Shown here one piece after another: positions 2,259-59,799 of a DNA stretch of 64,000 nt. The notes under the pieces are model-generated. The model saw only the letters and a list, made by a program, of their open reading frames with translations, was not told the origin of the DNA and searched no databases. Within the stretch, counting starts at the first letter, position 1; each line of letters starts with the position of its first letter. The stretch lies in IMG/VR virus record IMGVR_UViG_2049941000_000050; one strand, written 5' to 3'. The stretch is from an uncultured virus (IMG/VR IMGVR_UViG_2049941000_000050). Its lineage: Duplodnaviria > Heunggongvirae > Uroviricota > Caudoviricetes. The translations under genes were made by a program, and so were the position numbers.

Positions 2259-2267
2259 GAGTAAAGT

Positions 2268-18280: not shown

Positions 18281-18727
18281 ATGGTCAACAGAAACGAAGA
18301 GGTTTATTCCAGAAGAAACCACGCGAAACACCGTGTTTTTTACCATATTATATTTTCAACAAAATACAGAAGAAGATGTTTGGACGGAATAATGCCGGAA
18401 TTGAAAACCAGTTTCAAACGCGCCGAAAAAATGTCCAACGGTCTTTGGAAGATTGAGATGGTTGAAACGGATAAGGAAAAAATCGACCATGTTCATTTTT
18501 TGATTAGGGCCGTCCCACAAATTTCGCCCGGGGAAATAATCCACAAATTAAAACAATTTAGCACGTTTGACGTTTGGCATAATGAAAAATGTAGGGAAAT
18601 CTTATCCAAATTTTATTGGAAAAATAAAAAACATGGTCATATTCTTTGGACCCACGGATATTTTTGTTCTTCCGTGGGGGAAGCAAGTTCGGAAACCATA
18701 AGGAGATACATTTCATCACAAGGTTAA
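18281..18727 (+). CDS. tnpA: IS200/IS605 Y1 transposase
   Basis: YHIIFSTKYRR, HUH motif DHVHFL, W..GYFCSSVG....IRRYI..Q. Confidence 0.95.
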   Translation: MVNRNEEVYSRRNHAKHRVFYHIIFSTKYRRRCLDGIMPELKTSFKRAEKMSNGLWKIEMVETDKEKIDHVHFLIRAVPQISPGEIIHKLKQFSTFDVWHNEKCREILSKFYWKNKKHGHILWTHGYFCSSVGEASSETIRRYISSQG

Positions 18728-18792: not shown

Positions 18793-19602
18793 ATGCACAT
18801 GAACAGAAGACGGTTTATTGGAACGCTCATTGGGGGTCTCGCGGCTAATTGCGTCCCAACGTTCGCGTCGGAGGCAAGCGAGTTCGAGAAGTGCAGGAAC
18901 GACATCCTGTATTTCGTCGACAACCATCTCGTGGTGATAGACAGTCTATACGGGAACTTGAAGATGTCCCCACAACAAAGGGAATATCTTAAGCGAATGT
19001 CTGAGGTGAAAGACCATCTTTTCTGCGCGAAGGGACGCCAGATTGGAGCAAGCACCGCAAACCTGGTGTTCGCCCATTGGAAAACCAGGTTCTTTGAGAA
19101 TCAGAGAGTGTTCATAGTTGAACCTAGCCACGGGATGGCGAGATGCATGAAAAAGATGGACGGTTGCATTTTCCATAGACCAGCCTGTGTACAAAAGGGG
19201 AGTCTGATTCAGATTGCGACTCCCACGATGATTGAATGCGGAATTGACTGGTCCGACCCGAACAACACTTTTATACTGGACGAATACGCCTGGTGGAACA
19301 GAGGTTGCATGAACGAGAGTAGGTTCACTGACCTGAACAGCACCCTCATGGGTTCGCAACCCGCGGGTTCCTCCACGGGCCATTTCATTGTCGTGTCAAC
19401 CCCTGTTGACCACAAGGACTTGTTTTGCACGTTTGTCACTGGTGTGGACGATTCGAGGAGACTGGTTCTTCCAAACAAAGCCATAAACGAGCGGTCTGAG
19501 TGTAGTGCAACAACCAGCCTGGACGGAAAATACATTCTCCCGAAGTTCTCTTCTCCGGAAGAATTAAGACTAAAATTGATGCTTATGGGAGTCGAATCGT
19601 GA
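18793..19602 (+). CDS. terminase-ATPase-like paralog with Tat-like N-terminus and family-A C-terminal motif
   Basis: MNRRRFIGTLIGG..; EFEKCRNDILYF; KGRQIGAST; FILDEYAW; VVSTP; PKFSSPEELRLKLMLMG. Confidence 0.65.
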   Translation: MHMNRRRFIGTLIGGLAANCVPTFASEASEFEKCRNDILYFVDNHLVVIDSLYGNLKMSPQQREYLKRMSEVKDHLFCAKGRQIGASTANLVFAHWKTRFFENQRVFIVEPSHGMARCMKKMDGCIFHRPACVQKGSLIQIATPTMIECGIDWSDPNNTFILDEYAWWNRGCMNESRFTDLNSTLMGSQPAGSSTGHFIVVSTPVDHKDLFCTFVTGVDDSRRLVLPNKAINERSECSATTSLDGKYILPKFSSPEELRLKLMLMGVES

Positions 19603-32117: not shown

Positions 32118-33818
32118 TCGTACTCCTCTAGAATCTTTTCAATCTTCGGAAAAACCGTCTCGAGGATTCCGTCCGCCGCGTTCGCGAGCCTGTTCAGAAA
32201 CGGGCGGATTTTACAGATTTGCGAAAACACGGAATTTAGAAAAATCTCTCTTTTTCCGGGATTTTCCGCGAATATGTCCGGGGTAATCTTTCCGGAAATT
32301 TTGTTCAGGAAAAGCTGTTCCTCGCCGTCCCACCCGGAAAGTTCCGTGAACAGGACGTAGTTGCTGATGTGGTAGTAGTTTCTCCAAAACGGTAAAGGCT
32401 CCTCCCGGCAGTAAAGCTCTATCTTGTTTCCGAACGGGAACGCGCAGGTCAAGTCGTGCATAATTTTGTAAAACCGACTCGATAAAAAAATAGAATACGG
32501 TTCGATTACGCTCACGATTCTCGAGAATATCCCGAAGTTTTCCGTAAAATCGATGACAAAATTGTAGGAGTTGTAATTGCCGTATCTGTTCGGGGGCATT
32601 ATTAAGAGAAAGAGATAATTCGTCCCGTCGGGAAACGTTCCGTAGTTTTCAAGCTTCTCGTTTATGTCGAATTTTCTGGTCGGAACGTTGGAAATGGTTC
32701 TATTCTTACTGACACATTCCTCGTATCCTTCTGCGTAGTATCTGTGGTTGATTTTAACGTTGCGGCTCATTTTCCCTTTCCTCCTTAAAAAAAGTCCCAA
32801 TTCTCTCAAAGAACTGGGACGCATTTTAAACTACGGGATTCAAAATGTCAAGCAGTTTCGTCAAAAAAAAATCAACTATCCATCCACGTTAATAGAATCG
32901 GGCTGTCCCTATCGATGTAGTTCTCGATTTTATTCAGCGCGTAATCCACGTCGGTTATGAATTTTTTAAGCTCAACGAGAAAATGGTCGACGTCTTCCCT
33001 GGCGAATTTCGAGGAAAATGCGTTTTTGAAATTCTCCCCCGGAAATAGGGAGAGGAAAAGTTTTTTATCCTTAATAGCCTCGGAATACTCTTCCACACTA
33101 TCATTGAAATCATCCCATCTGCACCACATTTTCGTATGGATGTCAATGGAATCCAGCAGTTTGGCAAACGGGTTTTCGGACAGAAAAACCGGCCACCCCG
33201 GGTTAAGACAGGTCAACGGGGGAAAATCAGAACGGGCGAAATTCCCGAAAAGACCGAGACCGGTGTCTAATGGCTCCGGGATTCTGTACCCGTACGAATG
33301 GAAATCCTCGAAGAACGCGGTCAGTGGAACCAATTTCCCCTCGGTTCTCAGATGCACGAAAATTTTAGAATGGAGCGAGCACGACATCCGTTATTCCTCT
33401 CTCAATTTCCACTTAATGTGTATTTTCGGGTTTCCCTCTCCGGTGAACATTATGTTGTTTTCGGTATCTGGGGTTTGGCGAATTACTTCCACCAACTCCC
33501 TGATTTTATCAATGAACCTGAGCGATTCGTTGTTCTTCTTCGCCAGATTCCCAAATTCCTCTGGGGAAACGTTCCCAAGTTTAGAAGCTTCTTCCGGGGA
33601 AAGGTCTCCGGGTTCAAAAACCTCCCTTGGTGCAAGCGGGCACATTTTTTCATAAAGTGTTTCGAACATTCCGTCTTCTCCAAAAAAATCAGTGGTCTCG
33701 GTTTCGGAGCGGAGAGTTCTTGTCAGCGTTCCACAGTCTATGACTCTATTTTTCATTTTTTATTGGTGTTGCGAGTTGGCTCTTTTGGGGTATGGGTAAG
33801 TTTTGTTCATATTATTTT

Positions 33819-35173
33819 GGCGAAGGAAACGCAACCTTCTTCAGAGGTTGCGATGAATTCGCCATCTCCTTTCAATATATTATACCACTTGAAAATATTT
33901 TGTAACGTTGCTCATTCATAATGAAGTTTCTCAGTAAAATTGTGTAAATAATATTGTAATGAGAACATACAAGGTCAAATTGGAATTCGAGAACCAGAAT
34001 GTCAAGGACTTCTGGAAGAAACGCATTTGCCTTGTACAAGATTGCTACAACTACGCTTCCAACATCACCTTCAACGAGAAGGTTCAACTTGGTCTGAAGT
34101 CAGTTCATAGTAGACTATATTATGAACTCAGAGGCAGGTTCAAGGAACTTCCTTCTCAGATATGCATTCAAGTTGAACGGGCATTGATTGCGAACTACAA
34201 GTCGGTTCGTTCCAATGGACACCACTTGGACAAGCCAATTCAGATGAAGCATCCTGCAATCCAGCTCGACAAAAGGTTGTTCAGCAATCTTACAAGAGAG
34301 TCCTTCAAGTTGAGCAATGGAGATGGCAATCACAGGTCAGAAGTCAGATTCGTGACATATCCCAAGTTCGACCAATTGGCTGAGATGTACAAAATGTGCG
34401 ACCCAAAGCTGACCTACGATGTTGAAACTGACGTATTCCATGCTTGCGTTCCATTCCTCGACATCCCACCAACTCCACACGAAGACAGTTATATTGGAGT
34501 TGACCTTGGCGTGAAGAGATTGGCTACGCTTTCTGATGGCACATCTTACTGCGACAAGGAATACCTTGCGAATAGGAGAAGGATTCGACACAACAAGAGG
34601 ATGCTTCAATCCAAGAAGAAACACTCTCATTCTGCAAGGACGAAGTTGAAGAAGCTTCGTCGAAAGGAAGCCAATGTCTCCAAGAACACGTGCCACCATC
34701 TCGCCAATGCAATTCTGAAGCATCGTGGTTCTGTGGTGGTGATGGAGGACTTGACGAAAATCAAGCAAAGTACATCAAAGACGAAAGAAGGGTTCAAGAG
34801 AAAGCGTCACAACAACATGCTCTCTCAAGTTCAGTTCTATTTGATAAGACAGATTTTGACCTACAAGGCACTACTCAGGGGAAAGCGAGTAGAAACAGTT
34901 TCGCCCGAATACACATCCAGACAAGATTGCAGATATGGGTCTGGAGTTGGATGTAAACGTCAAGGGTGTAGGTTCTATACCAAAGATGGAATGGTGTTCG
35001 ATGCAGATTGGAATGCATCTATAAACATCATGAATCGGTATAAACACTCCACTTCGTTTGAGTTGCCTATTGATGGCAAGTTGAACTTGGTGAACAGGTT
35101 GCTTCAACCAACCAATAGTTCCGTGAGCAATCACAGAGCAATCTCAACGGTCTTCAGCCGTTGAGTAAGTTGA
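33819..35173 (+). mobile_element. TnpB-only IS200/IS605-like element 2
   Basis: Left hairpin motif 33819-33863 shared with element 1; right-end hairpin CTCAACGG-TCTTCAG-CCGTTGAG then ..TTGA. Confidence 0.72.
33959..35164 (+). CDS. tnpB: TnpB family RNA-guided nuclease (401 aa)
   Basis: GVDLG, VMEDL, YTSR.DC, DADWNASIN. Confidence 0.92.
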   Translation: MRTYKVKLEFENQNVKDFWKKRICLVQDCYNYASNITFNEKVQLGLKSVHSRLYYELRGRFKELPSQICIQVERALIANYKSVRSNGHHLDKPIQMKHPAIQLDKRLFSNLTRESFKLSNGDGNHRSEVRFVTYPKFDQLAEMYKMCDPKLTYDVETDVFHACVPFLDIPPTPHEDSYIGVDLGVKRLATLSDGTSYCDKEYLANRRRIRHNKRMLQSKKKHSHSARTKLKKLRRKEANVSKNTCHHLANAILKHRGSVVVMEDLTKIKQSTSKTKEGFKRKRHNNMLSQVQFYLIRQILTYKALLRGKRVETVSPEYTSRQDCRYGSGVGCKRQGCRFYTKDGMVFDADWNASINIMNRYKHSTSFELPIDGKLNLVNRLLQPTNSSVSNHRAISTVFSR

Positions 35174-35178
35174 ATTCT

Positions 35179-35854
35179 GTTTCATCTTCCGCGTACGTGA
35201 GAGTTGCAACGCGGAGCTAATACTCCCATCCTCAGACTATTAGGGTTTCATCTTCCGCGTACGTGAGAGTTGCAACTTTCGAGATTAAAAGATACAGCTT
35301 GACAGCCGTTGTTTCATCTTCCGCGTACGTGAGAGTTGCAACGCAAAAACCACAAGCACACCTTCCACGATGGGGTTTCATCTTCCGCGTACGTGAGAGT
35401 TGCAACCAATAAGCTTGAAACTGTGACCAAGGAATTATCGGTTTCATCTTCCGCGTACGTGAGAGTTGCAACTGCGGAAAACCGGGGTNNNNNNNNNNCT
35501 CATTGATGACCCGCAAACGGCGGAATCAGCCCAGTTTCATCTTCCGCGTACGTGAGAGTTGCAACGCCCAGTTCTTTCTGGACATTCTTTAAACGGCGGT
35601 TTCATCTTCCGCGTACGTGAGAGTTGCAACTGCGGAAAACCGGGGTNNNNNNNNNNTCAGGGCTTTCGGAAGAATTTCGATTCGTTCCGGTTTCATCTTC
35701 CGCGTACGTGCGAGTTGCAACAAACCAAATCGAAAAGAAGGCTGTTGTCGGAAGATGTTTCATCTTCCGCGTACGTGCGAGTTGCAACGGAAGTAATATC
35801 AGCCAAAAACAAGCACACGGGAGTTTCATCTTCCGCGTACGTGCGAGTTGCAAC
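35179..35854 (-). CRISPR. CRISPR array 2, 10 repeats GTTGCAACTC(T/G)CACGTACGCGGAAGATGAAAC
   Basis: Repeats start at 35179, 35245, 35311, 35375, 35441, 35534, 35599, 35690, 35757 and 35823. Seven are the T variant, three the G variant. Two N gaps. Confidence 0.95.
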
Positions 35855-36144
35855 AGCGGAAAACCGGGGTTTTCACCCCGCTCTGACCCATTTCTGAATC
35901 AGTTCTGTTCTCGTCTCCGAGGACATGGCGTGGAAATCCGCCTCTATCTAATTCATTTTTGGCAAAAACCGTTAAAATTTCTGTCAAAAACTTTCTTAGA
36001 GTACTTTTTTCTTCCGCGAACCTCCCAGGAAAAACCTGTGAACTTGGGGTTCGCGGAAGACTGGCGTTAAAAAAAAACAGTTTTTAAAAAACATTTTTTC
36101 TTTCAACGCCGAGGATTGTATCACAGTGACCAACCCTTTGTCAA
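35855..36144 (-). promoter_or_regulatory. CRISPR leader with inverted repeat and sigma70 promoter
   Basis: TTGACA (36144-36139), 18 nt, TACAAT (36120-36115). 13-bp inverted repeat TCTTCCGCGAACC/GGTTCGCGGAAGA at 36010-36060. Homologous copy at 40047-40199. Confidence 0.8.
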
Positions 36145-36197
36145 GTGGATTCTGAAACTTTTTTTCTAAAAGAGTTCCAATCCAACCGACGCCAATA

Positions 36198-37634
36198 TTA
36201 TACGGCTTTCTCCCCCACTTTTTCAGATTCTAACTCTTCCATCGCCGTTTTGTAGCACTTTTTCATAGCCACGGCGCAACATTTCTTCGTGAAACCGTAT
36301 CCCTGCGCGTTGTCGACGACTGAGCCGTCTTTCTTGTTGACGATTACCCACCGCTCGTTTTCGTTCCCGTCCTTGTCTTTCAAAGCCCTTTTCTCAACGT
36401 CCAAATCCTCCGGGGTTATTCCCTCGGGAAGAGTCTTGGCAAATTTCTCGTCATTCTTTTTGTAACGCTTCGCCTCTTCGCCGCCCCTCCAGATGTTTCT
36501 GTTGCGACCACATTTCTCGATACTGATGTTATCCCGTTTAGTCAGTTCTCCCGATTCCTCTCGCTTTTTAAGCCGTTCGTTGCGCCAATGGTGGGGATAT
36601 GAACCCTGTCTCGGCTTATACTCCAGCTTCTTCGGGAACGATATGTCGTTTCGGTCCTTGAGGTGCTCCAAATCCTCGTCCGACCACACACCGGCTTTGC
36701 GACCGATTCCGATTGCTCCGTTCACGTCGGCGTTTATGAGCTTCCTCTTTCCGGTCCTCGGGTCGATTACCGACGATTCAAACAGTCCGCGCTCGACCCG
36801 CCTTCCGAGAAACTTGTGGTCCTTCCTCGCGTCCCTGCCTTTCTTCCACATCAAAAGCTCCTCTTTTGCCGCGTGGTCGGTCTTCGAGGTATAAGATTCT
36901 TCAATCTCTTCGAGAAGAATCCCGGCATCCTCGCATTTGTACTTGAGTTTTTCAATCAGTTTTTTGTGGGGCATCTGCGCAAATTTCTGGTTGTTCTTTT
37001 TGCCCATGTTCGATTCATTTTTCCAGTCCTTGTTGTACCCGACAACAATTTTTCCGATGTCGTTGTCTAAAGCCCACTTGACGATTCTTATCGAGACGTA
37101 ATCTAACTCGGTGTTAATCTTGTTGCCGCATTTCCGGTAGAGGTTCCGGATTCTCTCGGACGTTTTCCGCTCGCCTTTGTACTGGTGGTCGAGAACGCTC
37201 TTGAACTCGGCTATCAGCCTGTTCCGGTTCTGGAGAATCGACAGAACGGTCCCCCCGTCGATAAACATCGATTGGTCGATTTTTGTCCCGTTCGTGACGA
37301 GTGTGCAGAGCCTTTTCACACCCAAGTCAATCGAAAGAACGTTGTTTGGGTTGCATGGGTTGGTTTTGGGAATTTCTTTTTCGTAAGAGTATACGATTGC
37401 GACTTTATCCCCGCAATGGATAAGCTTAACGCTGGACTTTCTTCTTACGAACCAATTAAAATTCATAATATCCGGGACCCGCAAAACCAACGAGCCGCCG
37501 ACCGTAATCGTCCTTTTTTCGTAATTTATCCCGCTGTAATGACCGCTACCCTGGAAAAACTGAATGGTTGCGTAACTGTTAAAGATATTGTTCTCTCTGT
37601 CGTGTTTGTACTGCGGCGGGCGGGGCAACCCGTT
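36198..37634 (-). CDS. TnpB/Cas12-like RuvC protein with ~140-aa C-terminal extension; N-terminus lost in gap
   Basis: SIDLGVKRL, IVVGYNKDWK (rearranged RuvC-II type), EESYTSK, INADVNGA, then an extension including DNAQGYGF. No IS-end hairpin at the 3' end. Confidence 0.8.
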   Translation of the reverse strand, partial: NGLPRPPQYKHDRENNIFNSYATIQFFQGSGHYSGINYEKRTITVGGSLVLRVPDIMNFNWFVRRKSSVKLIHCGDKVAIVYSYEKEIPKTNPCNPNNVLSIDLGVKRLCTLVTNGTKIDQSMFIDGGTVLSILQNRNRLIAEFKSVLDHQYKGERKTSERIRNLYRKCGNKINTELDYVSIRIVKWALDNDIGKIVVGYNKDWKNESNMGKKNNQKFAQMPHKKLIEKLKYKCEDAGILLEEIEESYTSKTDHAAKEELLMWKKGRDARKDHKFLGRRVERGLFESSVIDPRTGKRKLINADVNGAIGIGRKAGVWSDEDLEHLKDRNDISFPKKLEYKPRQGSYPHHWRNERLKKREESGELTKRDNISIEKCGRNRNIWRGGEEAKRYKKNDEKFAKTLPEGITPEDLDVEKRALKDKDGNENERWVIVNKKDGSVVDNAQGYGFTKKCCAVAMKKCYKTAMEELESEKVGEKAV

Positions 37635-37879
37635 NNNNNNNNNNCAAAAATAGGAACTTCCTTTGCCTTTTAAACCGTTCACGAGATATATTATATGGAA
37701 AAAACTTCCGGAAAGAAAAAATTTTTCAGAAAAAAATTTCACGTTTTTTAAAGAAAAAGCTTGACTTTTCCGGACGTTTTTGATATAATTCGCGAAATTT
37801 TCGCCCTTCCTCTTTCAAGAAGGGTCTGAATTATACCAAAAACCCGTCAAAAAGTCAAGCTTTTTTTGGAGGAAAAACG

Positions 37880-39263: not shown

Positions 39264-39612
39264 TGGTGGAGGTGAAGACGCTCTGCCCGTCTTGTCCGAT
39301 AAGCATTGGATTCGCACCCTCGTTCACGAGCTTAGCCGATAGTGGTTTTCCGCCGTTTACCACCGGCATCTTTTCGGCGGAATTTGTTTCCGTGTGTCTT
39401 GACCGGTACCGGAAACGTCTTCCGGTCAGAACTTGCCGTATGAAGGAAATCCGAAGGCTGTCAAGTTTCGCCGACGGTTCCTCGGCGGTTAAGCCGCCAT
39501 TGCCAACGAATAGTCGTCGTTTAGTTTTTTTGGCTTGTTTTTAGGAAGAACAAAGCCGTCTTCCGCTCGCGGATACGTCCAATATCCCACCGTCGAATTC
39601 TAATACACCCCC
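39264..39612 (-). ncRNA. ssrA: tmRNA; tag (A)DDYSLAMAA*
   Basis: 5' GGGGGTG..TTCGAC, 3' CACCTCC-ACCA with G3:U70; tag ORF at 39518-39489. Confidence 0.92.
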
Positions 39613-39684: not shown

Positions 39685-39765
39685 TTGTTGGAGTTTCATC
39701 TTCCGCGTATATGCGAGTTACAACAAAATCGCGTTTTTTCTCGCAGTTTCGCGAAGTTCCAACAA
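39685..39765 (-). repeat. solitary degenerate CRISPR repeat (39693-39724) within a long repeat/anti-repeat hairpin
   Basis: 29/32 match to the repeat. Arms TTGTTGGA/TCCAACAA, CTTCGCG/CGCGGAAG, TGCGAG/CTCGCA. Confidence 0.8.
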
Positions 39766-39769
39766 AAAA

Positions 39770-39823
39770 GGGCGGGAAGTATTTTTATTAATGCAAACAA
39801 AAAATAGGAACTTCCTTCGCCCC
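39770..39823 (-). ncRNA. short Y-RNA-like stem
   Basis: GGGCGAAGGAAGT..ACTTCCCGCCC; shares GTTCCTATTTT with 39846-39965 and 37645-37667. Confidence 0.5.
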
Positions 39824-39845
39824 GGAAATTAATTACCGAGAAATC

Positions 39846-39965
39846 GGCGGAGCGTATTTTTTCGGGTCGCTCTATCCAGTTGAGCTACGGAGCGGAAACC
39901 GTTCCGGGCGGATTCGAACCGCCAACTTACCCGTTTACCTTATTAAAATAGGAACGCTCTATGCC
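39846..39965 (-). ncRNA. YrlA-like Y RNA (circularly permuted tRNA mimic)
   Basis: Closing stem GGC-ATA-GAGCGT/ACGCTC-C-GCC; T arm GGCGG-TTCGAAT-CCGCC; closed acceptor-like stem; D arm GCTC-AACTGGATA-GAGC; TATAAT just upstream. Confidence 0.75.
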
Positions 39966-40014
39966 TTTTTCCCGGTTAATATTATACCGAAAATTTTCGC
40001 GGACATCGGGATTT

Positions 40015-40199
40015 GTTTCATTTTCCACGTACGTGTGAGTTGCAACTGCGGAAAACCGGGGTTTTCACCCCGCTCTGACCCATTTCTGAGCCGGTTCTGT
40101 CCCCGTTTCCGGGAACATGGCGTGGAAATCCGCCTCTATCTGGTCGGTTTTGGTGAAATTTGTTAAAAATCCCGTCAAAAAAACCTTCCAGAGTACTTT
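40015..40199 (-). CRISPR. single degenerate repeat (40015-40046) with a second copy of the leader
   Basis: GTTGCAACTCACACGTACGTGGAAAATGAAAC; 40047-40199 aligns with 35855-36007. Confidence 0.8.
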
Positions 40200-40245
40200 G
40201 AAGGGGCGGCGAGTTGAACCAGTTCCTCCATATCCGCATTCAAAA

Positions 40246-40343: not shown

Positions 40344-40419
40344 TGGTCTCCCAGAGAGGATTCCAACCTCCGACCCACGGCTTAGAAGGCCGTTGCTCTA
40401 TGCGCTGAGCCACTGGGAG
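40344..40419 (-). tRNA. tRNA-Arg(TCT)
   Basis: CTCCCAG/CTGGGAG-ACCA; ACGGC-CTTCTAA-GCCGT; T loop TTGGAAT. Confidence 0.9.
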
Positions 40420-40426
40420 CCGAAAA

Positions 40427-40503
40427 TGGTGCGCCCGGGGGGATTTGAACCCTCAGCCTTGCGGATAGGAGCCGCATTCTCTGTCCAGTTGAGATACGGG
40501 CGC
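40427..40503 (-). tRNA. tRNA-Arg(CCT)
   Basis: GCGCCCG/CGGGCGC-ACCA; TGCGG-CTCCTAT-CCGCA; T loop TTCAAAT. Confidence 0.92.
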
Positions 40504-40704: not shown

Positions 40705-43700
40705 TCAGTCTACCGGGTTTTTCTTCAGCTTTTTCGCGCTCCGGCGGGAAATTTCCCGCTTCGCGGCGTACCCGTACGAGTATGTGTTCGCGTAGGAAGC
40801 CAGTTCCTCGTTCGAGAGTCGGCGGACGGTTCTCGAAACGTTCGTGTCGTAGCTCTTGGCGAACTTTACCGGGCGGATTACCTTCGTTTTCGCTTTCTTC
40901 ATGGCATGCTACCTTTCTTGGTTCGTTTTCCTGTTTTTCCCTTAAAACGCCGACAATCTTATCAAAACCCGCCGGGTTTGTCAACAAAAAACGGCGTCTT
41001 TTTCGGTTTTTTTTTCAGAAAACGACCCTTTTCGTCCTGTTCTTTTTGCTTCTCGTTATTTCCTGCAAATGCCATTTCCCGCTCTCAAGGGAGAGCAGTC
41101 CCCCCTTTTTTCTCCCGAAAAGCTCTTCGGGAAACGGGTGGGCGGCGGTTTTTTCCCTCTCGAGGAACTCCCGGGGGGTGACAGTCCCCCCGGAAAGCTT
41201 TCCCGAAAGCCACCTTTTCGCGTCGCAGACCGTGAAAAGGCGTTCCTTGAACATCGGGAGGTCGGTTTCCGCGCCGAGCATTCCCGTGCCGAAAATTTCG
41301 GCTGGCTGGAACTCCGACAGTCCCCCGATTATTTTTTCCCACTCTTCCGGGGTTTCCGTTCTCGCCAGTATCCCACGGAACAGCGTTTTTTTGTTGGCGG
41401 TCGTCCTCAGGTAGAGAATCAGGCAGACCCTCTTTCCGTCGGAAACCATAGCCGACTTTACGAGCGAGGTCTCACCGCTTGGGCGGACGGGTCTTCCCCT
41501 TCCCATCAGACCCTCCGTTTTTTACGAGACCCCCTTTTGGGGAAAGTTCCGAGAAACGGCGGTTCAGCTCCTCGATTTCCTTCCGGAGGGTGTCGATGGT
41601 GTCGAGGAGTTTTTCGCGGTCGGAGTTCCGCTTCTCTGCGCGTTTTTTGGCGATTTCCCGCTCGGCGACAACCGTACCGTCGACAACGTCCTGGACCCTC
41701 GCCTTCCGGACGGCGGACCTGATGAAATTGATGAAGCCCTTCGGCTTCACCGTCCCCATGCCGTCCAGCTTGCAGACGAGCCTTTTCGCGATTGCGTACA
41801 CCAGCCCGATTTCCTTCGCGGACTCGGACGCGGTCAGCATTTTCCTCTTCGAGCCGTCCGAGAGGACGACCTCCTTCTCGACGAGCGAGATTTCGTCGCC
41901 CATGTCCGGGTCGTTTTTAACGACGGAGGTGGTCCCGTCGACGAAAGTCACCACCGTGTGCAACACGCCCTTCCCGTTTTCCTTCACGGAGGTGTGGTAT
42001 CTAACGGAAGAGATTTTCGGCGCGAAGGTGTTCGTCGCGACCAGAGAGTCGATTACGCTCTGGCGGGCTTCCTCTTTGCACATCAGCTTTCCGTGGCAGT
42101 CCCTGCTAAACAGATTTTCCATAGTTTTTTATTCCTTCCTTATTACAGTCCCTCAATTGAGAACAGACAATTGAGAACAGACCCTCAAGTTTCCGGCAGA
42201 CCCTCGAATTTTTACTAGACCCCCCGGAAAACTTTCCTTTCCGGTCACTCGTCCCCCAAATCGTCCTCTTCGTAAAGTTCTTCGTCGTCCCCGAAGCCGT
42301 CCCCATACGTGTCGAACGCCTCGTCCAGCATCTCAATCGCGTCGTTGATTTTCTCGGTTATTCTCTCCCGCTCGTCTTCCGGAATCTGTTCGAGACCGGA
42401 AATCTCGTTCGCGGCGGCGGACAGCGTTTCGTTCAGTTCTTCAATCGTCATTCCCATTGTGTTGTTCCTTTCTTTCGTTTTTTGAAATCCGAGCCATATT
42501 ATACGGGTCAATCCCGGTTCGCGGCGATTTTTTCCAAAAAAAGCAGTGCCGACGAAATTCCGGCGGCGAGATAGCAAATCAGCATAAACCAAATCGGCCA
42601 AGCGCACGGAAGGGTCATAAGAACCCAAGAGAACTTGCTCCAATGGCACATCGGTTCGGCGTTCGGTTGGAACGCACGGCAAGCAACGATGACCGCCGAA
42701 AGAATGAACCCGCCCGCTTGTCTCGGCAACTGTAATTTCATGGCATTTTCTCCAAATTAAACAAAACCCGCTAATCGTTTTAAGCAACCGTTTAACTCAC
42801 AACGGCGGGAAATGTACCACATAGCGGAAGGTGTTGTCAAGATGGAAATTGCGAAAATTTTGATTTTTTTAATTTGTCAAGAATATTTTTAAACTGAATC
42901 GACTTTATATATAAGGAATGCTAATGAAAAAATTTCAAGAAAATCGCTTTTTAAAATTGACAAAATCCGTTCTTTTTGATATAATTCGCGGTCAATCTTT
43001 GGGACGGGTCCGCGAATTATAACAAATCCGTTTCAAATTGTCAATATGTTTTTTAANNNNNNNNNNATTCGGAACAGGTCCGCGAATTATAACAAATCCG
43101 TTTCAAATTGTCAATATGTTTTTTAAAAAATTTCGCGTTTTTTTTTGTATTTGATAATATTATACGGGATTCTTCCGGATTTTCTCCGAAAAAGTTCGAG
43201 GTAAATAATCCAGTAAAGAAGGATTTCACCAATGGTAATCAAATTAGAAGGTCGAAAAGGTTTCATTTTCCAAACACTTCTCCAAGGACTGAAGGAAGCC
43301 CACAAAGCCGGAACCGGCGGATACAAGGTGGAAGTTCAGAAGAAGGACGAGGTTGACTCGAAATTCCTCAACGCGGTCAAGAAAGAGTATTCCGCGAAAT
43401 TCATCGATGACGCGGACTATCTCATAAAGGTCGCAATCCCGAAGGAAGAACCCGCTCCGGAAGAACCTACTCCGGAAGAACCCGTTACCGAATCGAAAAA
43501 CAGTGAGAACGGGGAAGAGGGAAGTCGCGGAGACTCCCCGAACGGGGAAACCGAAGAGACTTCCAAACTGAAGGAAACCATCATCGAGACGGTTCAGCGC
43601 AGGCTGTTCATCCCCGAAACCGACAAGGTCGAGTTCTTCGACCTGAACGATTTCAAGAAGGAAGGTTACGCGGTCGGTTTCTTCAAGGTGTCTTTGGGCA

Positions 43701-46700
43701 AATAATTCTCTCTCGAAAACAAACCCAGAATTAAATTAATATATAAAAAAATTAGCCGACGGAAATCAACCCGTCGGNNNNNNNNNNAGTTCGAGTAAAT
43801 AATCCAGTAAAGAAGGATTTCACCAATGATAATCAAATTAGAAGGTCGAAAAGGTTTCATTTTCCAAACCCTTCTCCAAGGACTGAAGGAAGCCCACAAA
43901 GCCGGAACCGGCGGATACAANNNNNNNNNNACACGATGTGCAGTCTGCTCCTTCTCAACCCGTATTCGACGGTTTCCTCGTATCCGNNNNNNNNNNTCTT
44001 TTAATTTTTTAAATATAATTTCAGATTATTTCATTTTGTTATTTCGACCGGACTCTTCGAACTTGTTTGAATCCGTGGATGTAGGATAATATTCCCGATA
44101 ATCCGGGACAGCCTGACACGGGAAAAGAATTTTCCCGAACCGTTCCTTTTGGGAGTCAGACCCCTCTTTGTTGCCTTTTTCCCAGTTTGTTCCGTTCTTT
44201 CCCATATCACAGTCCCCGTCTATTCGTCTTCCGGTTTGTGGTTTCCGATTTGGTCAATAGCCACCCTCTCGACAAGATGGCCTTTCGCGGTATGGTTATA
44301 ATGACAAAGCGGGTTTAGACAAACCTCAAGTAGGTTGCGCGAACAGCCGAGAAAATTCTGGACATTTTTCAATCTCTTGAAATAGAGGGATTTCCCGCTT
44401 TTGACATTGATAATTTTGTAACAGAGATTTTGCTGGTTCTTTTGCATTCCAGACCCCTTTCCTTATTCCGCGAACGCGGAATTGTAATCCTTAACCGTGA
44501 GTTCAAGCTCTTCCAGTGGAATCTCGAGGTAGGATTCCCCGTCATAGACAACCGCGGTCTTCGACTTGTTTTTCGACAGACCGAGGTAGACCACCCTCTT
44601 TTTCGTGGCTTTCACAACCATCGTCATCATCATTCCAGACCCTCCAGTAACCTGTCTATCGACATTGCGAATGGCGTACCGGGAGTGCTGGCGAACACAT
44701 ACCCCCGCCCTTTGGCGGAAAGGAGTGCTTCCTTTTCCGTATCGAACTCCTCGTTCCAAAGACTCCTCCAATAGGAATCTTCCCATGTCCACTTTCCCGT
44801 CCGCAACGATTCGTGCAGAATTGCCGTTCTTCCCCCGTTCATTCCAAACCCCCGTTTCCGTTTCCGGCTATGTCGCCCTTTGCCATTTTTACTAGACCCC
44901 CATCGGGTCGGGGTTTTCTTGGTTTCCCCGACCCGTTCTTGTTAACAACCGCTACCGCCTGTCATATTCCACACAGTACCCGTGGCGGCTGACGTGGCCG
45001 TCCACGAACACCACGTACCGCCAAGACCCGTTTTCCTTCGCCCAACGGATACCTTCGGAAATACTGTCGAATTCCGTGGGTTCGGACTCGAAACCGAACC
45101 TTGTGTACAACTGCACCTCGCATTTCTTCTGTTTTGGCATTTAGTCACCTACTTTCATCAGATACACGCGGTGGCAAAACTGCGTGGACTTACCGGACGG
45201 CTGAAGGTAGTACAAGAGGCCGCGGCGGCAACCGCCGCCCGCGTACACGCGGATATCCTCGTCGTTTTGCGGCTTTCTTGTGACATAACCCCTTTGCCAA
45301 GAGGTGAACGCATACTTCCAACCCTGTTCCTTCGCTTCTTTAAGTGTCATTTCCATTTCCATACCTCTCTCCTTTCGTTTCTGACGGGCGGACAAAAGCC
45401 CGCCCGTTTTGCGTTTTCCGCTACTCCTTGAAATCGTCAGCCTTGAGATAGCCCCCGACATTCGGATACACTTTAATACTGACGAACTCCCTTTCGTATC
45501 CCCACTCGATTACCTCCCCGTTATCCTTAACGAAGGTGTTTTGCGGGTTGATTACGCCAAGAATAGTATCATAGACTCCGGCAACGAGCTCTTCGGGAAA
45601 TCTCCCATCGTCATACGTTCCGTAGCTCACGCGCTCGACACATTCCTTCGGCTTGTAGAAATAGATGTGAACGTCTATTCCGACTTCCGGCGCGGTCTCG
45701 CCCCGCTCGAACTCAAACTGGACGGTATTCCCGATGTACTGGCCGTATTTCTGAACGAGAAGGCTCTTCGCCTTTTCGTAAAGTTCAGAACGGAGGTTGT
45801 CTTCCTCGGTTCTGTTATGCAGTAAGACGGCGTTTTCCTCTTTGCCCGACCCCAAATCCCAATCGTCCTTGGGCGTGTAGGCTTGGACTTCCGCCAAAAC
45901 CGCACCGCAGACTTTGAACATAGTCTCGACCCACATCTTGGCGAACCCGTTCTCGCACTCGACAACATACCCGTTGTCGGCCTTGCGCTTACTCACGGTC
46001 TCACCCCTCTCTTCCCAAGCCTTTTGGATGCCGTCAAGGCGTTGCATGATTTGCTTGGTCGCGGTGGCTTCGTCCTCGTAATACCACATATCGGTGTCTA
46101 TGGTCGATGCGCGACCGTAGCGGCTCAACGATTTAATCGTGTATATCATTTCCCTATCCCCCCTCAGTCGATTCCCAAACTCTCTTTCAGTTCGTTCAGT
46201 TTCCGCTCGGCGAATCTGTCGATGAAATCGTAGTAATCGCAGTATTCGTTGGCATCCGGATTTCCGGCAACGGTTTCCTGATATTCCTTCTCGGCCTCGA
46301 CGGCCCACGGGATGATATCGTTAACAACGATTTCGTGTTGCCCGTATGGAAGGCCCGCCCTGTTGTAAAGCTCTTGGAGCTTTTCAAAAATCCCGATGCC
46401 GATGAAAACCGCGTTCTCAACTTCCGTCTCTTGGTAGCTCATTTGCCGTCCCCTTTCTTGTTCGTCTCGCTGACCTTCAGCTCCCTCGCCTTTTCCCAAA
46501 GCTTGAGGGATTTCCGCGTTACGCGGATATCGGCTTTTAGCGACTCGACCTTCTGACTGTCTGCCGCAATCTGCCGCTTCCGCTGTGTGATGACCTTGTC
46601 AATCTCCTTGAGTGACATTCCCTCGCCCAAACAACGGGCTTGGGAGTTTTCGCTCTTCTTCTTGTCCGACATAACCGTACCCTTCCGTTTTTACGAGACC

Positions 46701-49700
46701 CCCCCATCGGGGGGAAACACTATCCCTCCCGAAAACGATGCAAACTTTAACACAACCCGTAGAACTTTGTCAAGCCGATTCGTAGAATTTTTTTAACTGA
46801 TTCCGCAAATCAGCCAAGTCCCGTCCAACCCTTTCCCGAAAACCGCGACACTCGTGTTCAGCTCCATCGCGATTTCCCCCATCTCCAACCGATGGGCTTC
46901 GCGCTCGTAGCGCAGTATGACAAACCGCTTGTCATCGTGGATGTCCACGCCGACAAGCTTCGACTCGATGTTGTGTGTCCGCCGATACTGCTCGCCGAAA
47001 CCGTATGCGGTCATGACCACCGAAACATTGTTAGCCGTCTCGATAACTAATCTCATTCCGTCACTCCTCTCTCGTTGGCAAGGTGACCCCCGATAAAGCG
47101 GAAGAGAAACCCCATCTCTTCCAAAAACACCGCGTATTCTACATCACCCGTAGAATTTTGTCAACAAGAAATCCGTTATTTTTTAAAATTATTTTTGTCG
47201 AAGCCGTATAATATTGCGCGGGCTTTTGGTCTGCAAAAATGTTGATAACCTGTAGATAACTTTTTTTCTCTTTTTTATTGACAAACCGGTGTTCGGTTTG
47301 GTATAATTCGCCGGATTTCTTTTCCACGAGGAGGCGGATTTTCGCGAATTATATCATTTCTTTTTCTTTTTGTCAAGAAAAAAATAAAAAATTGTTTGAA
47401 GAAAAAACCCGTGACGGGAAATTTGATTAGCCCCGTCCACGGGTTTTCGTTATCATGACAACTAGCGAACAAAAGAAACAATTTTAAATTATTTCATTCC
47501 GCTTTTGCGCGGCTCTTTTTCGGAGAAAAAGCCTTCCCGACCTTTTTCTTCCACACAGAATCGTTCCGGAGTGTTCCGGTCTTCCCCCATTCCTTAAACC
47601 CGCCCTCGATTATTACCTTTTCGTCTTCGTCCAACACATAGAAGCCCTCATCGTCCAATTTAATTTCAATGTCTTTCCGCTCTTTCAGAACCACAGACCC
47701 GTCATTATCGACAAGGTAATGCTCCTCGAAAAAGTTCTGTTCGGCTTCCCGACCCCAAATCTCCGCCTTGAGGTTAAGGTCTCGGCAAAGGGACTGCACG
47801 GAAACCAGTCCCTCGTCTTTGAATTCCTTTTCCATCTCCGTGTCGAGAATCATGCCGCAACCCCAATCGACATTGAGAAAGACGGAGTATGTCCCGTCAA
47901 CGATGCCGCCTTGGTTCAGAAACTCCGCACGGCACAGATGGTGCTTGTAATCTGTCCCCTTCGCTATGCTTCTGAATTTCTTCAGAGACTCGTCTTCGCC
48001 CCTGACGCACAACTTAACGAAACAGCAGTTTGCCATAATTTCCGACCCCTTTCGAATTATCAGACCCCTTTGGCTTCCTTGAGAAGGGATTCGACCTCTT
48101 CCCGTTTAGCCACGATTTTGGACATAAGCTCCCCGTGGGGGCTTTCCGTTCCCGCGTTCCATTCGACACGGGCGTTCTCGTCAAGGAAGAACCATTCCTC
48201 GTCACGGAGTCTTTCGTACTCCGTGACCGAGGAAACCAACTTGGCGAGAATTTCTCTCGCCCTATTGACCATCTTTAAACTCGCCTTTCGTCTCCACCTC
48301 GAAATCGCCCGTCCACGAACAGTATGACGGTTTGATTTCCCCGTTGGCTACCATGTTCTCGACTATTTCCCTAGCCTGCTCCGGAGAGGAAGCTTTGACC
48401 TTGCGCGTTGTCCCCATGTCGAAATGAATATCGACAACGAAGGTTTTTCGCGTGTCGGTCTCCGTGACCTCTTCTATCTTGAAGGACTTGGCCTTGCCCT
48501 TACTAAACCCGTTCGCGTTGTCGGGTTGGCGGTGGATAACCATGCCGCTGTTGTCAGTGATGAACACTGTCGAATCGTCCGTCCGGTTGTCGTAGTAATA
48601 TAACATAATTTCCTGCACCATCCTATCGTGGACGAAAAGGAACTGGTCTTCATCGACCAAGGTATAGTTTCTTTCGCCCCCGTCCGGAGTCATTTCCGTG
48701 CATTTCAAACTGTACTTCTGAACCTTGACACCCATTCTCTTGTCCCCTTTCTTTCGTTAGCAGTGCATCTCTGTCTCTACCTCTTTGCTTGACCAATCTG
48801 AAGTACCCACGAACTCCTTTGAGTAATCTTCAGATTCGTAAGCCATTTCCATAGCCTTGTCTTCCGACTCCGCTTCGACTATCACCTCGCAATCGTAGCT
48901 TTCCGTCCAACGGACGATGTAAGCCCGCTTGTTCTTGTTCCCGACCTTTTCGTTTTTCACCATAGCTCATTTCCCTTTCTTTCGTTAGCAGTCCGTGTCT
49001 GTGAAGAAGATTCCACATTCTAGGTTGGTCAGAGCATTGACCGCTCTGTTCCGTTCCGCCCCGTCCGTTCTAGAAATCCACTTCATCAAGTAGTTCTTGA
49101 AGGCGGTTTTCGTGGAAAACCATTGGGTTGTACCGTATGCCTTGATTCCAAACTCGCCTGGCTTTTCTTCCCCTTGGTTCGCCTTGGCATCGTTTTCCAT
49201 GTCAGACCCGTTAGCACCTTCGACCGTGTCGAGGGTGACAATCTCGGAGTCTATATACTCCAAATCACCTAGTTCCGAATCTTGAAGGCGGGATTCCGCC
49301 ATCTCTTCCGCTTCCTCTTCCGAGTTTGCGCGAACAATGTAAGTCAGCCGACCCTCAACCTTGTAAACAACCTCAAACAACATAACCTTACCCCTTTCGT
49401 TGCGGGCGGGGGAGACCAGTTCCCCCCACGCCCAAATTCGTTCACTTCCGATTTTCAGAAACCAATCTCAAAAATCGGGTTTACTTTCTCATACCCCGAG
49501 AATTTCTCCTTGTTTCCCGTGATTTCGAGTTCATCCCAAGCCCACGCTCCGGCGAGGTCTTCGTTAACCCCGCGATAGTCTCCACCACCTCTGCCGTTGC
49601 CGACCGCAGTCAAAATGGCGAACGGGCAAACAATCCACGGGGACTGCTCATTCAGCGCATCAAAGTAATCGTCAAACGAGATGTACTGCCCTTTCGTGTG

Positions 49701-52700
49701 GTTCAGGAGATACTTCCCCGCATAGAACCCACTTTCCGTTTTGGGCGGTGGGAATGTGTGGTCATGCTCCGTATCCCAAACGGATTCGTAGCCGAACTCC
49801 CCGTTGGAGATTCTTTTCAGCTCGTCTTCCTCGGCGTAATCCCCGACCCACGCGAGATGTGCGGGGTTGTCCAACATTTCCCTCGCCACCGCTACACACA
49901 GATGCGTGTAAACATACCCATGCTCCAACAGTTTGGCTAAGATGTATTCCACGCCTTTCACCTTACGGTCATTGACCGTGACCTTCGTGTCGCAGTTGTG
50001 TCTGAAAGCGACTTTGTAATACTGACCCATAACCTTACCCCTTTCGTTTTTACGAGACCCCCTTTGGAGAAGGAAACCACATCCCACCCAAAGAACACAG
50101 ACATAATACCACATCCCCGACACTTTGTCAAGGTGTCGGGGAAGATTTTTTCAAAAAAAGTCAGACCGACCGGACGGAGACATACTCGCCGACACTGTCA
50201 TTCTTCTTGAAGAACTGTTCCCCTTGGTTCGCCTTGGCGTGGAACGATTTCGCCAACTGCCGGACTGTGTCCCCAAAAGAGGAAAGAAGAAGCTTACTCT
50301 TCTCTCGCGTGAGGTTGGCGCGGTTGTACCACACATTCCACGAAGCGGAATTGTAATTCCCTTCTATCGCGATGGGGAAATTCTTGCACCTGTCCAAGGT
50401 GTCCCCCGAACAGATGCGGTATTCCCGCAATTCGGTCTTACTGGTGTGTATGTCCACGCCGTTGACAATGACCCCGCCGGAAGCGCATTCAATCTCATAA
50501 TATCCGTCATTATAGCGGACGCAGTGGCAACGACCCGGGACTAGCGAGAATCTAATGTCGAAGAATTCGCCAAAGTGCTCAACTTCCAAACTGCCCGCAC
50601 GAATCGTCCCGTTACCACCGACGATGCCACTGAAATGCCAAATTTTAAGGCAGTCTAAATTGAAAAACAGTTCGATGTTCTCGACAACTTGTTCCACGAT
50701 GTAATCGTGGATTTCGCAGTACTCCTCATAGGCTTTCTTACAGTACTCCGCGATTTTCGCATCGTGGTATTCGCGGTTCATGTCTTCCGAAACCTTCTTC
50801 ATAGAAGATGCTTCCTTAAGAAGGTTCTCGATGTTCGTTTTGTCAGCGGTTGTCATCATAACCTTACCTTTCTGGGCGTTGGAAGAGAAACCCTATCCCT
50901 CCCGAAAACGAGACATAATTTAACACAACCCGTAGAACTTTGTCAACGAGAAATCCGTTTATTTTTTCTCGGCGGTTTCTCAACCACCGGAAGCGAGAAG
51001 CCGACTTTGCCCGAAAGCAACCCGTCTTTGTACCTAAAGTCCAATTTGCCGACTATCCAATCTTCGTGCTTGTTAAGCACATTGTCGATACAGTCTTGGA
51101 TTTCGACGCAGTCTTGGCATTCGATACTCATCTCGGCGTTTCCGCCGTCAATCCGAACATGAAAACCGCTGATTTTCTCCGTTCTCATAGCGCATACTCC
51201 CTCTGTTAGAACCAATCGACATAAGCGGTGTCTCCGGTGTTCGCTTCGAGACACTGCTTGATAAGTTCTTTCACGGATTCCCGAATCTCTTCCGGAAGGG
51301 ATTCGTAAGAGTCTTCCGTGATGTTCTCTTCCAAGAGTCCTTTGTCGATTTCCCACCTTTCCTCGTTCGTTTCACCGGAAGTGTAATCGAGAAAATCGAC
51401 TCCCTGTTCAATCAGCCAATCCTCAATGATTAGGCTTTGGCAGTTCAGAGTTTTGTTTTTATTGTTGTTATGCTCAACAATGTGTTTCGACTGCACATAA
51501 GGTCTGTAATCCATAACCATACTCCCAACTGTTCTTTCCACGGGAAGAAACCCTATCCCCCGCAAGAACAAGACATAATTTATCACAACGGGTTCGTTTT
51601 GTCAACGAGATTCTTGAATATTTTTTAAAATTANNNNNNNNNNTGTTTATCGTCGTGTCGGAGTGGAGCAAATCGCCCATTTTCTGAACGAACCGCTTCG
51701 CCCCATCAACCCGCCTGATTTTGTCGAAATCGTCGACCGGGTCCAGCGAGGCGGTTTTCCCGTTCGAAAGCTCAAGACTTATCTTTTTCCCGGACATCTT
51801 GTTCTTTTTCAGCTTATCCACGTATCCGGAATAACTCTTCAGCATGTCGAGAATGTTGGCGAGGTTCCTGATGAAAATATTCTTCAATTCTCCGTCGCCC
51901 GTACCNNNNNNNNNNNNNNNNNNNNNNNNNNNNNNNNNNNNNNNNNNNNNNNNNNNNNNNNNNNNNNNNNNNNNNNNNNNNNNNNNNNNNNNNNNNNNNN
52001 NNNNNNNNNNNNNNNNNNNNNNNNNNNNNNNNNNNNNNNNNNNNNNNNNNNNNNNNNNNNNNNNNNNNNNNNNNNNNNNNNNNNNNNNNNNNNNNNNNNN
52101 NNNNNNNNNNNNNNNNNNNNNNNNNNNNNNNNNNNNNNNNNNNNNNNNNNNNNNNNNNNNNNNNNNNNNNNNNNNNTTACCTTAAGCAAGCCGTTGAATC
52201 TCGCCCCCAACTGACTCCGTTCAAACTCAATCCCCACATAATCCCCCCTACGGCGGAGGGAACTCACGGCGTTAACCCACTCCGTGAACTTTGTCGGGTC
52301 GATTAACGCCACCGCAAAGCGGACATCGTCAATCGTGCCGACCTTCGGCTCGGTCATGTTGGCGTTGATGAAGTTGTCCCCCAAGTTGTAGTTGAAGGAA
52401 TATTCCATCGTGTACCGCTTCACCCTCGGTCTTCTCGTTACCATAGGTCACTCTCCCTTTCCGCAACAATCGGTAATTTTCCCCTTAAGGGGCATTCCCG
52501 TCTTAATGCAAACCCTACTCGACACACCCACCAAATGGTGGGTGCAGTTCCAACACTCGCCGTACAGTTTTTGCCGCACAGACTTGTCTTTTCGATAGGC
52601 TTTCTCTTCTTCTTCCGGAACTGGGACAAACTTGCTCATAACTCACTCCCCCCATCTACTAGCACTGCAACAGTGTGTTATCCTTCTTGACGAAGCGGAC

Positions 52701-57127: not shown

Positions 57128-57203
57128 AAATCCCCCAAAAACAGTTTCCGTCTAAAGCCACATTGGCTTTAACCGAACGGAAACCGACATTCCCAAGGGA
57201 AAC

Positions 57204-57275
57204 ATATCCGTGCGTGACTCGAACACGCATTCCGCAACTGGTGCGGAGTCTTTTCCGTTTAAAACGAACGGACAC
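57204..57275 (-). ncRNA. tRNA-like element, atypical anticodon arm, no CCA
   Basis: TGTCCGT/ACGGATA; D-like GTTTT-AAACGGA-AAGAC; TCCGC-ACCAGTT-GCGGA; T arm GCGTG-TTCGAGT-CACGC. Confidence 0.6.
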
Positions 57276-59682: not shown

Positions 59683-59799
59683 ATCCTTTCTTTAAAAACT
59701 TTTTCTCGTCAACGCCGTGTAATGTATCACAACGGTTTCAACTTTGTCAAGGAGATTCAAAAAAAAACGTAAATATCTTAAAAACCCGTTCAATATTTT

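Follow-up and report, generated by a model that had tools for sequence, protein, structure and literature searches.

A domesticated-looking TnpB gene beside a CRISPR leader and array on an uncultured tailed phage

Introduction

When a TnpB gene lies upstream of a CRISPR leader and array, on the same strand, does its product use the RNAs of that array? This question is raised by a stretch of 64,000 nucleotides (nt) from an uncultured tailed virus (IMG/VR record IMGVR_UViG_2049941000_000050; Caudoviricetes), the whole of which we refer to as the window. Here, the gene of a RuvC protein that we call T3 (3’ part at 36198-37634, minus strand) is followed by CRISPR repeats at 35179-35854. A first-pass annotation, made from the letters of the window alone, had proposed a compact type V-like locus and an independent transition from TnpB to Cas12 on a phage. 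The part of this proposal that describes a domesticated, extended TnpB beside a leader and array stands, while our tests lean against a working type V-like locus and against such a transition. The explanation that we favour, to which we give about an even chance, is that these are orphan phage arrays served by Cas proteins from outside the window, and that T3, a resident TnpB derivative and probably an active one, makes no use of them.

Passages of PMC10691335 infer that type V effectors arose independently from TnpB about 50 times, and describe two routes towards them, namely the duplication of an omega-RNA segment and the landing of a transposon beside an existing array. The same passages report TnpB clades with a rearranged RuvC-II glutamate as enriched in viruses. 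Few concrete examples of the transposon-beside-array route are available so far. The present phage shows three TnpB genes of differing age that touch array modules, one of them a proven recent insertion and one, T3, enlarged and phage-adapted. Should T3 use its array, the locus would be a natural intermediate of the insertion route, and a clade whose active site is rearranged would have yielded a new compact nuclease. Otherwise the locus would serve as a caution that gene order is weak evidence for a CRISPR effector in genomes whose dispensable DNA accumulates TnpB elements.

The T3 gene and its protein

Twenty-six runs of N interrupt the window, which is a scaffold, and one of these, the 10-N gap at 37635-37644, had been thought to hide the N-terminus of T3. 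It turned out to be a mis-join and no short gap, with a partner gap at 58932-58941. Four sequencing runs (X1-X4), all from a single sample with the label bovine gut metagenome, cover the DNA of the window almost completely, and the contigs of three of them (X1-X3) continue from 37634 via GTA, the 3 nt missing at the join, into the letters after the gap at 58942, extending 307, 951 and 3,510 nt past the join. The scaffold is mis-joined at 37635 and 58932, and 21 kb is wrongly placed inside the T3 gene. Since the two halves of T3 lie 21 kb apart and yet are joined in contigs, the order of the segment 37645-58931 with respect to the rest is unreliable. Residues 1-245 are encoded at 58942-59676 (minus strand) and comprise a zinc-ribbon-like CPECG...CKAKGC followed by an enlarged helical N-terminal half; 36198-37634 encodes residues 247-724 and the stop, with three RuvC motifs and a C-terminal extension of 154 amino acids (36198-36662). 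At its full length of 724 amino acids, T3 is encoded back to back with an open reading frame (ORF) at 59800-60498 and the terminase gene. On its upstream side, in the direction of the terminase gene, the sequence runs on for 3.5 kb or more and shows no left end. A promoter-like site upstream of T3 (59721-59750, minus strand; TTGACA-18-TACATT with TG) is one of 13 phage-class sites, whose pattern TTGACA-N14-17-TGnTAYAWT occurs 13 times in the window and not once in 100 shuffles.

The ORF at 36198-37634 matches the Pfam families OrfB_IS605 (PF01385; 57.1 bits, cutoff 30.5) and Cas12f1-like_TNB (PF07282; 35.5 bits, cutoff 26.3), and by these profile matches T3 is a member of the TnpB (IS200/IS605 OrfB) superfamily. 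Within it, T3 is 32-41% identical to 11 aligned members of a TnpB clade that has a rearranged RuvC-II and no RuvC-II/RuvC-III zinc finger (308-499 amino acids, most 396-418). The VVGYN/EESYTS rearrangement that had been read from T3 itself is invariant in the clade alignment: the usual position of the RuvC-II glutamate reads VVGYN throughout, and the glutamate is found in EESYTS instead. The catalytic residues of T3 are the aspartate of RuvC-I in SIDLG, the glutamate of the rearranged RuvC-II in EESYTS and the aspartate of RuvC-III in NADVNG. All three stand in invariant columns, leaving the catalytic triad intact, and T3 keeps the clade-invariant D, EESYTSK and NADxNGA motifs. T3 has in common with the clade its invariant motifs, its Pfam domains and a TnpB/Cas12f-like predicted fold. 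The AlphaFold model (mean predicted local distance difference test score 68.6) reached E-values in Foldseek of 7e-14 to AsCas12f and 2e-9 to ISDra2 TnpB; the fold search leaves TnpB and Cas12f unseparated, the model being about equally like both.

Where the clade proteins have about 400 amino acids, T3 has 724, with a unique zinc-ribbon-like N-terminus, an enlarged helical half and the C-terminal extension. More precisely, it exceeds the clade by about 85 N-terminal residues with CxxC...CxxxxC, by about 60-100 residues in the helical half and by two small insertions, and its C-terminus runs about 154 amino acids past the end of most aligned members. The N-terminal 250 and C-terminal 154 amino acids have no relative except an allele of T3 itself, P0001, and an ESM Atlas look-up with the N-terminal 250 gave a score of 0.82, which is chance level. 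P0001, the only other T3 allele known, comes from another assembly (632 amino acids). Over the first 80% of the T3 fragment the identity is 100%; P0001 has 246 residues more upstream, with residues 1-245 identical to those encoded at 58942-59676, and ends in EYE-stop where T3 of the window continues for 95 residues. The same allele is present in run X4. In this EYE-stop allele (window 36485, in run X4, and P0001) the stop comes directly after NIWR, and the letters that follow include TTCGCGGA, the core of a hairpin that in the window lies near the leader (hairpin 2, below); the allele may lack 427 nt, which comprise the last 95 codons, a promoter and a further hairpin (hairpin 1). The C-terminal extension, earlier counted at some 140 residues, is thus confirmed for the window’s T3, and P0001 has EYE-stop in place of its last 95.

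Codon usage of T3 is phage-like, as had been claimed (z of the codon adaptation index +0.34), against -1.84 and -1.53 for T1 and T2, two other TnpB genes of the window. Neither element ends like those of T1 and T2 nor an adjoining TnpA were seen at T3.

Relatives of T3 and their omega-RNA

The clade of T3 is common in viral contigs, where 563 candidate stretches gave 540 confirmed members; the best 80 of these, together with two loci found with P0002, were inspected with flanks of 3 kb (8 kb for L001-L002). The viral relatives are 32-44% identical to T3; the closest, P0002 (41%, 499 amino acids), has its own locus outside the 82. Co-occurrence of relatives with an array had been suggested as a check on the type V proposal, and the outcome was negative: no CRISPR array stands beside T3 relatives at any of the 82 viral loci within the flanks inspected. 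Two periodic candidates, or three when the 31 loci of T1 and T2 relatives are counted in, are plain tandem repeats. Most ORFs of the relatives measure 391-446 amino acids (74 of 79), the other five being fragments of 94-188. A scan of viral_contigs for close relatives of T3 found none, and a search there with P0002 gave just two loci, 39% identical.

The relatives share a structured RNA that spans the end of the ORF, with 16 pairs, 14 of which show compensatory changes, and that ends about 50-90 nt past the stop. When the covariance model of its core (R1) was run over the whole window with filters off and E up to 10, it found no match in 36000-37634, though a diverged RNA at T3 could be missed, since the model was built from A/T-rich relatives at 32-44% protein identity. 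Moreover, the 3’ region of T3 has no sequence in common with the flanks of the relatives (best E 0.096). Thus T3 is distinguished from its clade by lacking an omega-RNA match, a TnpA and visible ends, and by its phage-type codons and promoter. The view of T3 as a domesticated-looking, extended TnpB is supported by its size, its unique termini, the intact triad, the ameliorated codons, the phage-type promoter and the lack of a match to the clade omega-RNA.

Among the relatives themselves (L001-L082), the omega-RNA core is well conserved, with GATAGnGG between two covarying stems, and the elements end in TTTTAATAACGTG or ...CATAACAT, again about 50-90 nt past the stop.

Arrays, repeat and leader

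The CRISPR repeat is 32 nt long and reads GTTGCAACTC[G/T]CACGTACGCGGAAGATGAAAC. With up to 3 mismatches it occurs 19 times in the window, compared to none in 100 shuffles, with eight copies at 4-675 (plus strand), ten at 35179-35854 (minus strand) and a single diverged one at 40015-40046. Both the weak folding of the repeat and its CGC/CTC/CAC variation, noticed at the outset, hold up: its folding is at the level of shuffled sequence (z +0.50 to +0.68, sense strand) without a stable stem, and the three variants account for 11, 7 and 1 copies. Searched against Rfam with E up to 10, the array stretch matched no family, CRISPR repeat families included, and over 35150-36250 the E-value search returned solely generic hairpin matches far under their thresholds. 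The 3’ end of the repeat, GATGAAAC, resembles the ATTGAAAC-type 8-nt handle of Cas6-processed class 1 CRISPR RNAs (crRNAs).

The array of ten repeats that had been described beside T3 does hold ten copies at 35179-35854 (minus strand), but as scaffolded it is made of three contig pieces split by two N-gaps, in which the repeat and the leader each come in two variants. The pieces 35179-35488 and 35499-35646 carry seven CTC-type repeats (35179-35630), and each ends in a 16-nt leader fragment whose first letter is T. The third piece, 35657-37634, is free of gaps and carries three CGC-type repeats (35690-35854), two unique spacers, a leader whose first letter is A, a pair of hairpins, a promoter and the 3’ part of T3, which confirms the minus-strand order of RuvC protein, promoter, leader and repeats within one piece. 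Given two variants of both repeat and leader, there are possibly two arrays. The stretch has seven complete spacers of 32-35 nt, and the whole window eleven, of 32-36 nt.

A second array with the same repeat lies at 4-675 (plus strand), with eight CGC-type copies and five N-gaps, and continues beyond the start of the window; the T1 element has its right end some 21 nt away from the last repeat of this array. Because all eight of its repeats are CGC-type, the array of T3 may be the leader end of this array rather than that of the array scaffolded beside T2. As a separate matter, 253-302 is identical to 764-813, a part of the T1 gene, and is a 50-nt contig fragment between N-gaps that was misplaced in this first array.

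About 155 nt on the GTTGCAAC side of the repeats (35855-36010, minus strand) recur at 40047-40203, and this recurrent segment was taken as the leader, which sets the transcribed strand of the arrays; 35823-36007 and 40015-40199 are 79% identical. The second copy heads a mini-array (39693-40203, minus strand) that consists of the leader copy, a repeat at 40015-40046 (3 mismatches), about 290 nt and a degenerate repeat at about 39693-39724 that exceeds the limit of 3 mismatches, with a transfer-messenger RNA (tmRNA) gene adjoining. The roughly 290 nt between its repeat copies contain tRNA-like D-arm and T-arm motifs in permuted order. On this same strand, two tRNA-Arg genes (40344-40503) are followed by the leader copy and mini-array and then by the tmRNA (39264-39612), which scores 75.6 bits in Rfam.

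No protospacers were found in the window with up to 6 mismatches, among 50,697 phage records (best E 2), or in the pair of large viral records in which the T2 element also occurs (best E 0.4). In the re-assembled contigs, depth across the spacers is low or zero in some bins, an observation to which no weight was given. Within the arrays, contigs end in a repeat and the start of the leader, or in a repeat and the start of the last spacer, which is compatible with strains that differ in spacers, and also with collapse of repeats during assembly. Neither the exact nor the degenerate repeat was found in viral_contigs, in genome_contigs of 185,579 species or in metagenome_contigs. As had been stated, no other cas genes are present in the window (72 ORFs against Pfam, 74 against PADLOC).

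The stretch between T3 and the array

On the minus strand, the stop of T3 at 36198 is followed by a sigma-70-type promoter, two hairpins, the leader and the repeats. The promoter-like site (36115-36144; TTGACA-18-TACAAT with TG, 11 of 12 matches) faces the hairpins, leader and array. T3 was said to have no right-end hairpin, and this is so for hairpins of the T1/T2 type, but the 131 nt after the promoter do form two strong ones before the leader (z -6.64). Hairpin 1 (36063-36110, minus strand) has an A/U-rich stem closed by GGCGUU/AACGCC, belongs to the segment specific to the T3 side and ends 5 nt from a breakpoint at 36058/36057. Hairpin 2 (36010-36060, minus strand) has a perfect 12-bp core, CTTCCGCGAACC/GGTTCGCGGAAG, and one of its arms is repeat-like to a degree matched by one in 500 shuffles of the 211-nt region.

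Could this hairpin supply an anti-repeat? Its 5’ arm pairs at 11 of 12 positions with repeat nucleotides 15-26, and was rejected as an anti-repeat after a window scan and a duplex test, which both put it at chance level; shuffled windows give 0-12 such matches, about 4.5 on average. Over 35855-36800 no anti-repeat exceeds chance, the best duplex of the repeat with the transcript reaching -21.2 kcal/mol, as do 130 of 200 shuffled repeats.

All four runs have contigs that join 36028-36057 to 37645, forming a junction without T3. These T3-less contigs extend 76 letters left of 37645, and up to 46 other letters would lie in between. It follows that the module of hairpin 2 and leader exists also with a neighbour other than T3, which is either a second array module or a T3-less allele. 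The listed contigs that run leftward from T3 stop at 36028, and those across 35868-36057 carry the hairpin and leader or close variants.

TnpB elements at the other array edges

The TnpBs of the window, T1 and T2 included, are only 21-24% identical to T3, and T1 and T2 have left- and right-end hairpins in common. The T1 element occupies about 697-2275 (minus strand; boundaries approximate, TnpB at 733-2028). The T2 element is of IS200/IS605 type and lies at 33806-35176 (plus strand; TnpB at 33959-35164), its ends being fixed by two further copies, 86-87% identical, each found in a different large viral contig and flanked there by unrelated sequence. On this comparison of copies, T2 is proven to be a mobile insertion sequence. 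The 3’ ends of T1 and T2 face the far (trailer) ends of the two arrays. Because T2 is mobile and ends 2-5 nt before a terminal repeat, and T1 ends about 21 nt from another, adjacency of TnpB and array arises here by insertion. None of the 31 loci of T1 and T2 relatives has an array within the flanks inspected.

A degenerate repeat at 33750-33782, which would place T2 inside an array, was unsupported, as 100 of 500 and 45 of 300 shuffles do equally well. The left ends of T1 (2271-2275), T2 (33806-33811) and the two T2 copies (L084 and L085) begin with TTCAT(A). On the T2-facing strand, each CRISPR repeat likewise contains TTCAT, which is a possible target or transposon-associated motif of T1/T2-type elements.

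Discussion

So who uses the arrays? In the explanation that we favour, the window is a wrongly scaffolded piece of a distantly T4-like phage of the bovine gut (rumen). The phage carries at least two CRISPR arrays and one mini-array, with a common unstructured 32-nt repeat and a 155-nt leader, and the making and use of their crRNAs would fall to Cas proteins of the host or to ones encoded elsewhere in the phage. The TnpB genes at the array edges would be there because elements of the IS200/IS605 type land and persist in dispensable DNA. T3 would be an older resident of the same kind, enlarged to 724 amino acids and fitted with phage-adapted codons and a phage-type promoter, while its catalytic residues remained intact. 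Its likeliest activity would be RNA-guided cutting of DNA with a guide RNA of its own from its 3’ flank, which would serve its own retention or competition between phages, without processing or using the neighbouring crRNAs.

Several observations weigh against this explanation. T3 is far larger than its clade, and the clade omega-RNA model found no match and no guide RNA of its own was identified. Neither Pfam nor PADLOC revealed, among the ORFs of the window, a Cas protein able to serve the arrays. As the repeat is absent from all collections scanned, a host system with the same repeat is assumed and not seen: a matching host repeat beside a cas operon, which would mark orphan arrays that depend on a host class 1 system and which the first-pass annotation had held out as the alternative to its own proposal, gave no matches in genome_contigs and metagenome_contigs. 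Furthermore, T3 followed by an array on the same strand is the arrangement that passages of PMC10691335 report for almost all conserved associations of Cas12 with arrays. Finally, three of the four TnpB genes in 64 kb touch array modules, for which random placement has a probability of about 1e-5 by a rough estimate. This clustering has a cause, but function accounts for it no better than homing does, or insertions that are tolerated in dispensable DNA.

We consider it unlikely that T3 is instead a type V-like effector that uses the crRNAs of the array downstream. By this route, a TnpB would have landed beside an existing array (or an array would have been captured), lost the omega-RNA of its clade and gained extra domains, while leaving spacer uptake to Cas1-Cas2 acting in trans. 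The order and common strand of T3, promoter, leader and array would then be the one described for Cas12 loci in passages of PMC10691335, and promoters of one phage class stand at both T3 and the array. The 724 amino acids, compared to 391-446 in 74 of 79 viral relatives, the termini without relatives outside its own allele and the retained D/E/D residues would all suit an effector. The lack of a match to the clade omega-RNA model, with an unstructured repeat, no other cas gene in the window and no host repeat in the collections scanned, leaves room for a Cas12-like protein. Such a protein is not supported, however, since arrays are found at none of the 82 relatives’ loci and the anti-repeat is at chance level. 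In addition, the repeat-like arm of hairpin 2 is locked in a perfect hairpin, and its segment 36028-36057 is also present in the T3-less junction; the same repeat is used in arrays that adjoin unrelated TnpB insertions away from T3; the end GATGAAAC resembles a class 1 Cas6 handle; and the C-terminal 95 amino acids vary between alleles. A more particular version, which we regard as more doubtful still, would make T3 an early-stage, phage-made Cas12-like effector: a viral TnpB with rearranged RuvC-II that landed next to a class-1-style array, already present and equipped with a true leader, lost its omega-RNA, gained new termini and reads crRNAs from an array still fed by foreign Cas1-Cas2. If this were true, the two younger TnpB insertions at other array edges would represent the first step recurring in one genome.

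Less probable again, in our view, is a homing-type TnpB whose guide RNA would run from the promoter at 36115-36144 through hairpin 1 to 36058/36057, with the hairpin-2 sequence as guide. T3 would then cut genomes that have the T3-less junction and be copied into them by recombination during co-infection. The outward promoter, the hairpin that ends 5 nt from the breakpoint, and the presence of the junction (36057 to 37645) in contigs of all four runs agree with this, as do the right-end hairpins of T1 and T2, which likewise lie near element boundaries. However, a scaffold of about 50 nt is far below known omega-RNA lengths, and the clade omega-RNA core, undetectable in T3, lies within the ORF end. 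Moreover, with up to 46 letters between 36057 and 37645 the junction may come from another array that has its own copy of the leader module, and the upstream side of T3 shows no left end over at least 3.5 kb. The adjacency of T3 and array might also be an artefact of assembly, T3 lying beside no array in the real genome, which we hold to be the least probable explanation and a very unlikely one. It would draw on the demonstrable mis-joins at 37635 and 58932, on the multi-copy leader and repeat at which the listed re-assembled contigs all break (36028-36057), and on the misplaced small fragments in the array at 1-675 (253-302 = 764-813). Against it, 35657-37634 is gap-free and unites three repeats, two unique spacers, the leader, both hairpins and the 3’ part of T3; contigs from T3 reach 36028, and those over 35868-36057 carry the hairpin/leader sequence or close variants.

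Orphan arrays and mini-arrays that depend on host Cas proteins are known from huge phages and archaeal viruses. The arrays of the window are like these in that a leader is present and cas genes are absent from the 64 kb, that one or two repeats make up a mini-array, and that one leader occurs in several copies. They are unlike them in that a search for the host repeat whose match would define such arrays, in genome_contigs and metagenome_contigs, came back empty. Phage-encoded type V systems, for their part, include CasPhi/Cas12j and CasLambda. Further such systems are Cas12r of Thermus Lalka phages and ‘Cas12 hacker’, as described in parts of two preprints (bioRxiv 10.64898/2026.04.20.719267 and bioRxiv 10.1101/2025.01.20.633832, respectively). 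What the present locus shares with phage type V systems is a small RuvC effector candidate and arrays on a phage, plausibly for conflicts with other mobile elements. In those systems, interference was shown and the crRNA defined, whereas T3 is a candidate effector and no protospacer was found.

Compact type V effectors derived from TnpB comprise Cas12f and the V-U variants (passages of PMC10691335) and the TranC intermediates (part of a review, PMC13565253). Like these, T3 is of TnpB descent, is enlarged, and has a same-strand array downstream with no adaptation genes nearby. Unlike these, its association with an array is not conserved (0 of 82 loci), neither a trans-activating CRISPR RNA nor an anti-repeat was found, and the 155-nt leader of its array is duplicated, with sister arrays elsewhere that are not beside T3.

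Other features of the window

By its genes, the window belongs to a large tailed phage with a distant likeness to T4, with a clamp loader, an RNA ligase, a DenV-type glycosylase and fragments of GIY-YIG homing endonucleases; one tmRNA and two tRNA-Arg genes are encoded. Its large terminase is at most 35% identical to that of isolates. Large-terminase profiles match two ORFs, at 18793-19599 and 60838-62622 (both plus strand), and the shorter one follows directly after an IS200-type TnpA (18281-18727) and a truncated TnpB, T4 (16854-17645). This terminase-like ORF may be a fragment, a paralogue, or a sign of two strains mixed in the scaffold. Lastly, many of the 13 near-consensus extended -10 promoters stand as divergent pairs in repeated intergenic modules (D5-D9, D16 and D18), across 42811-57647.

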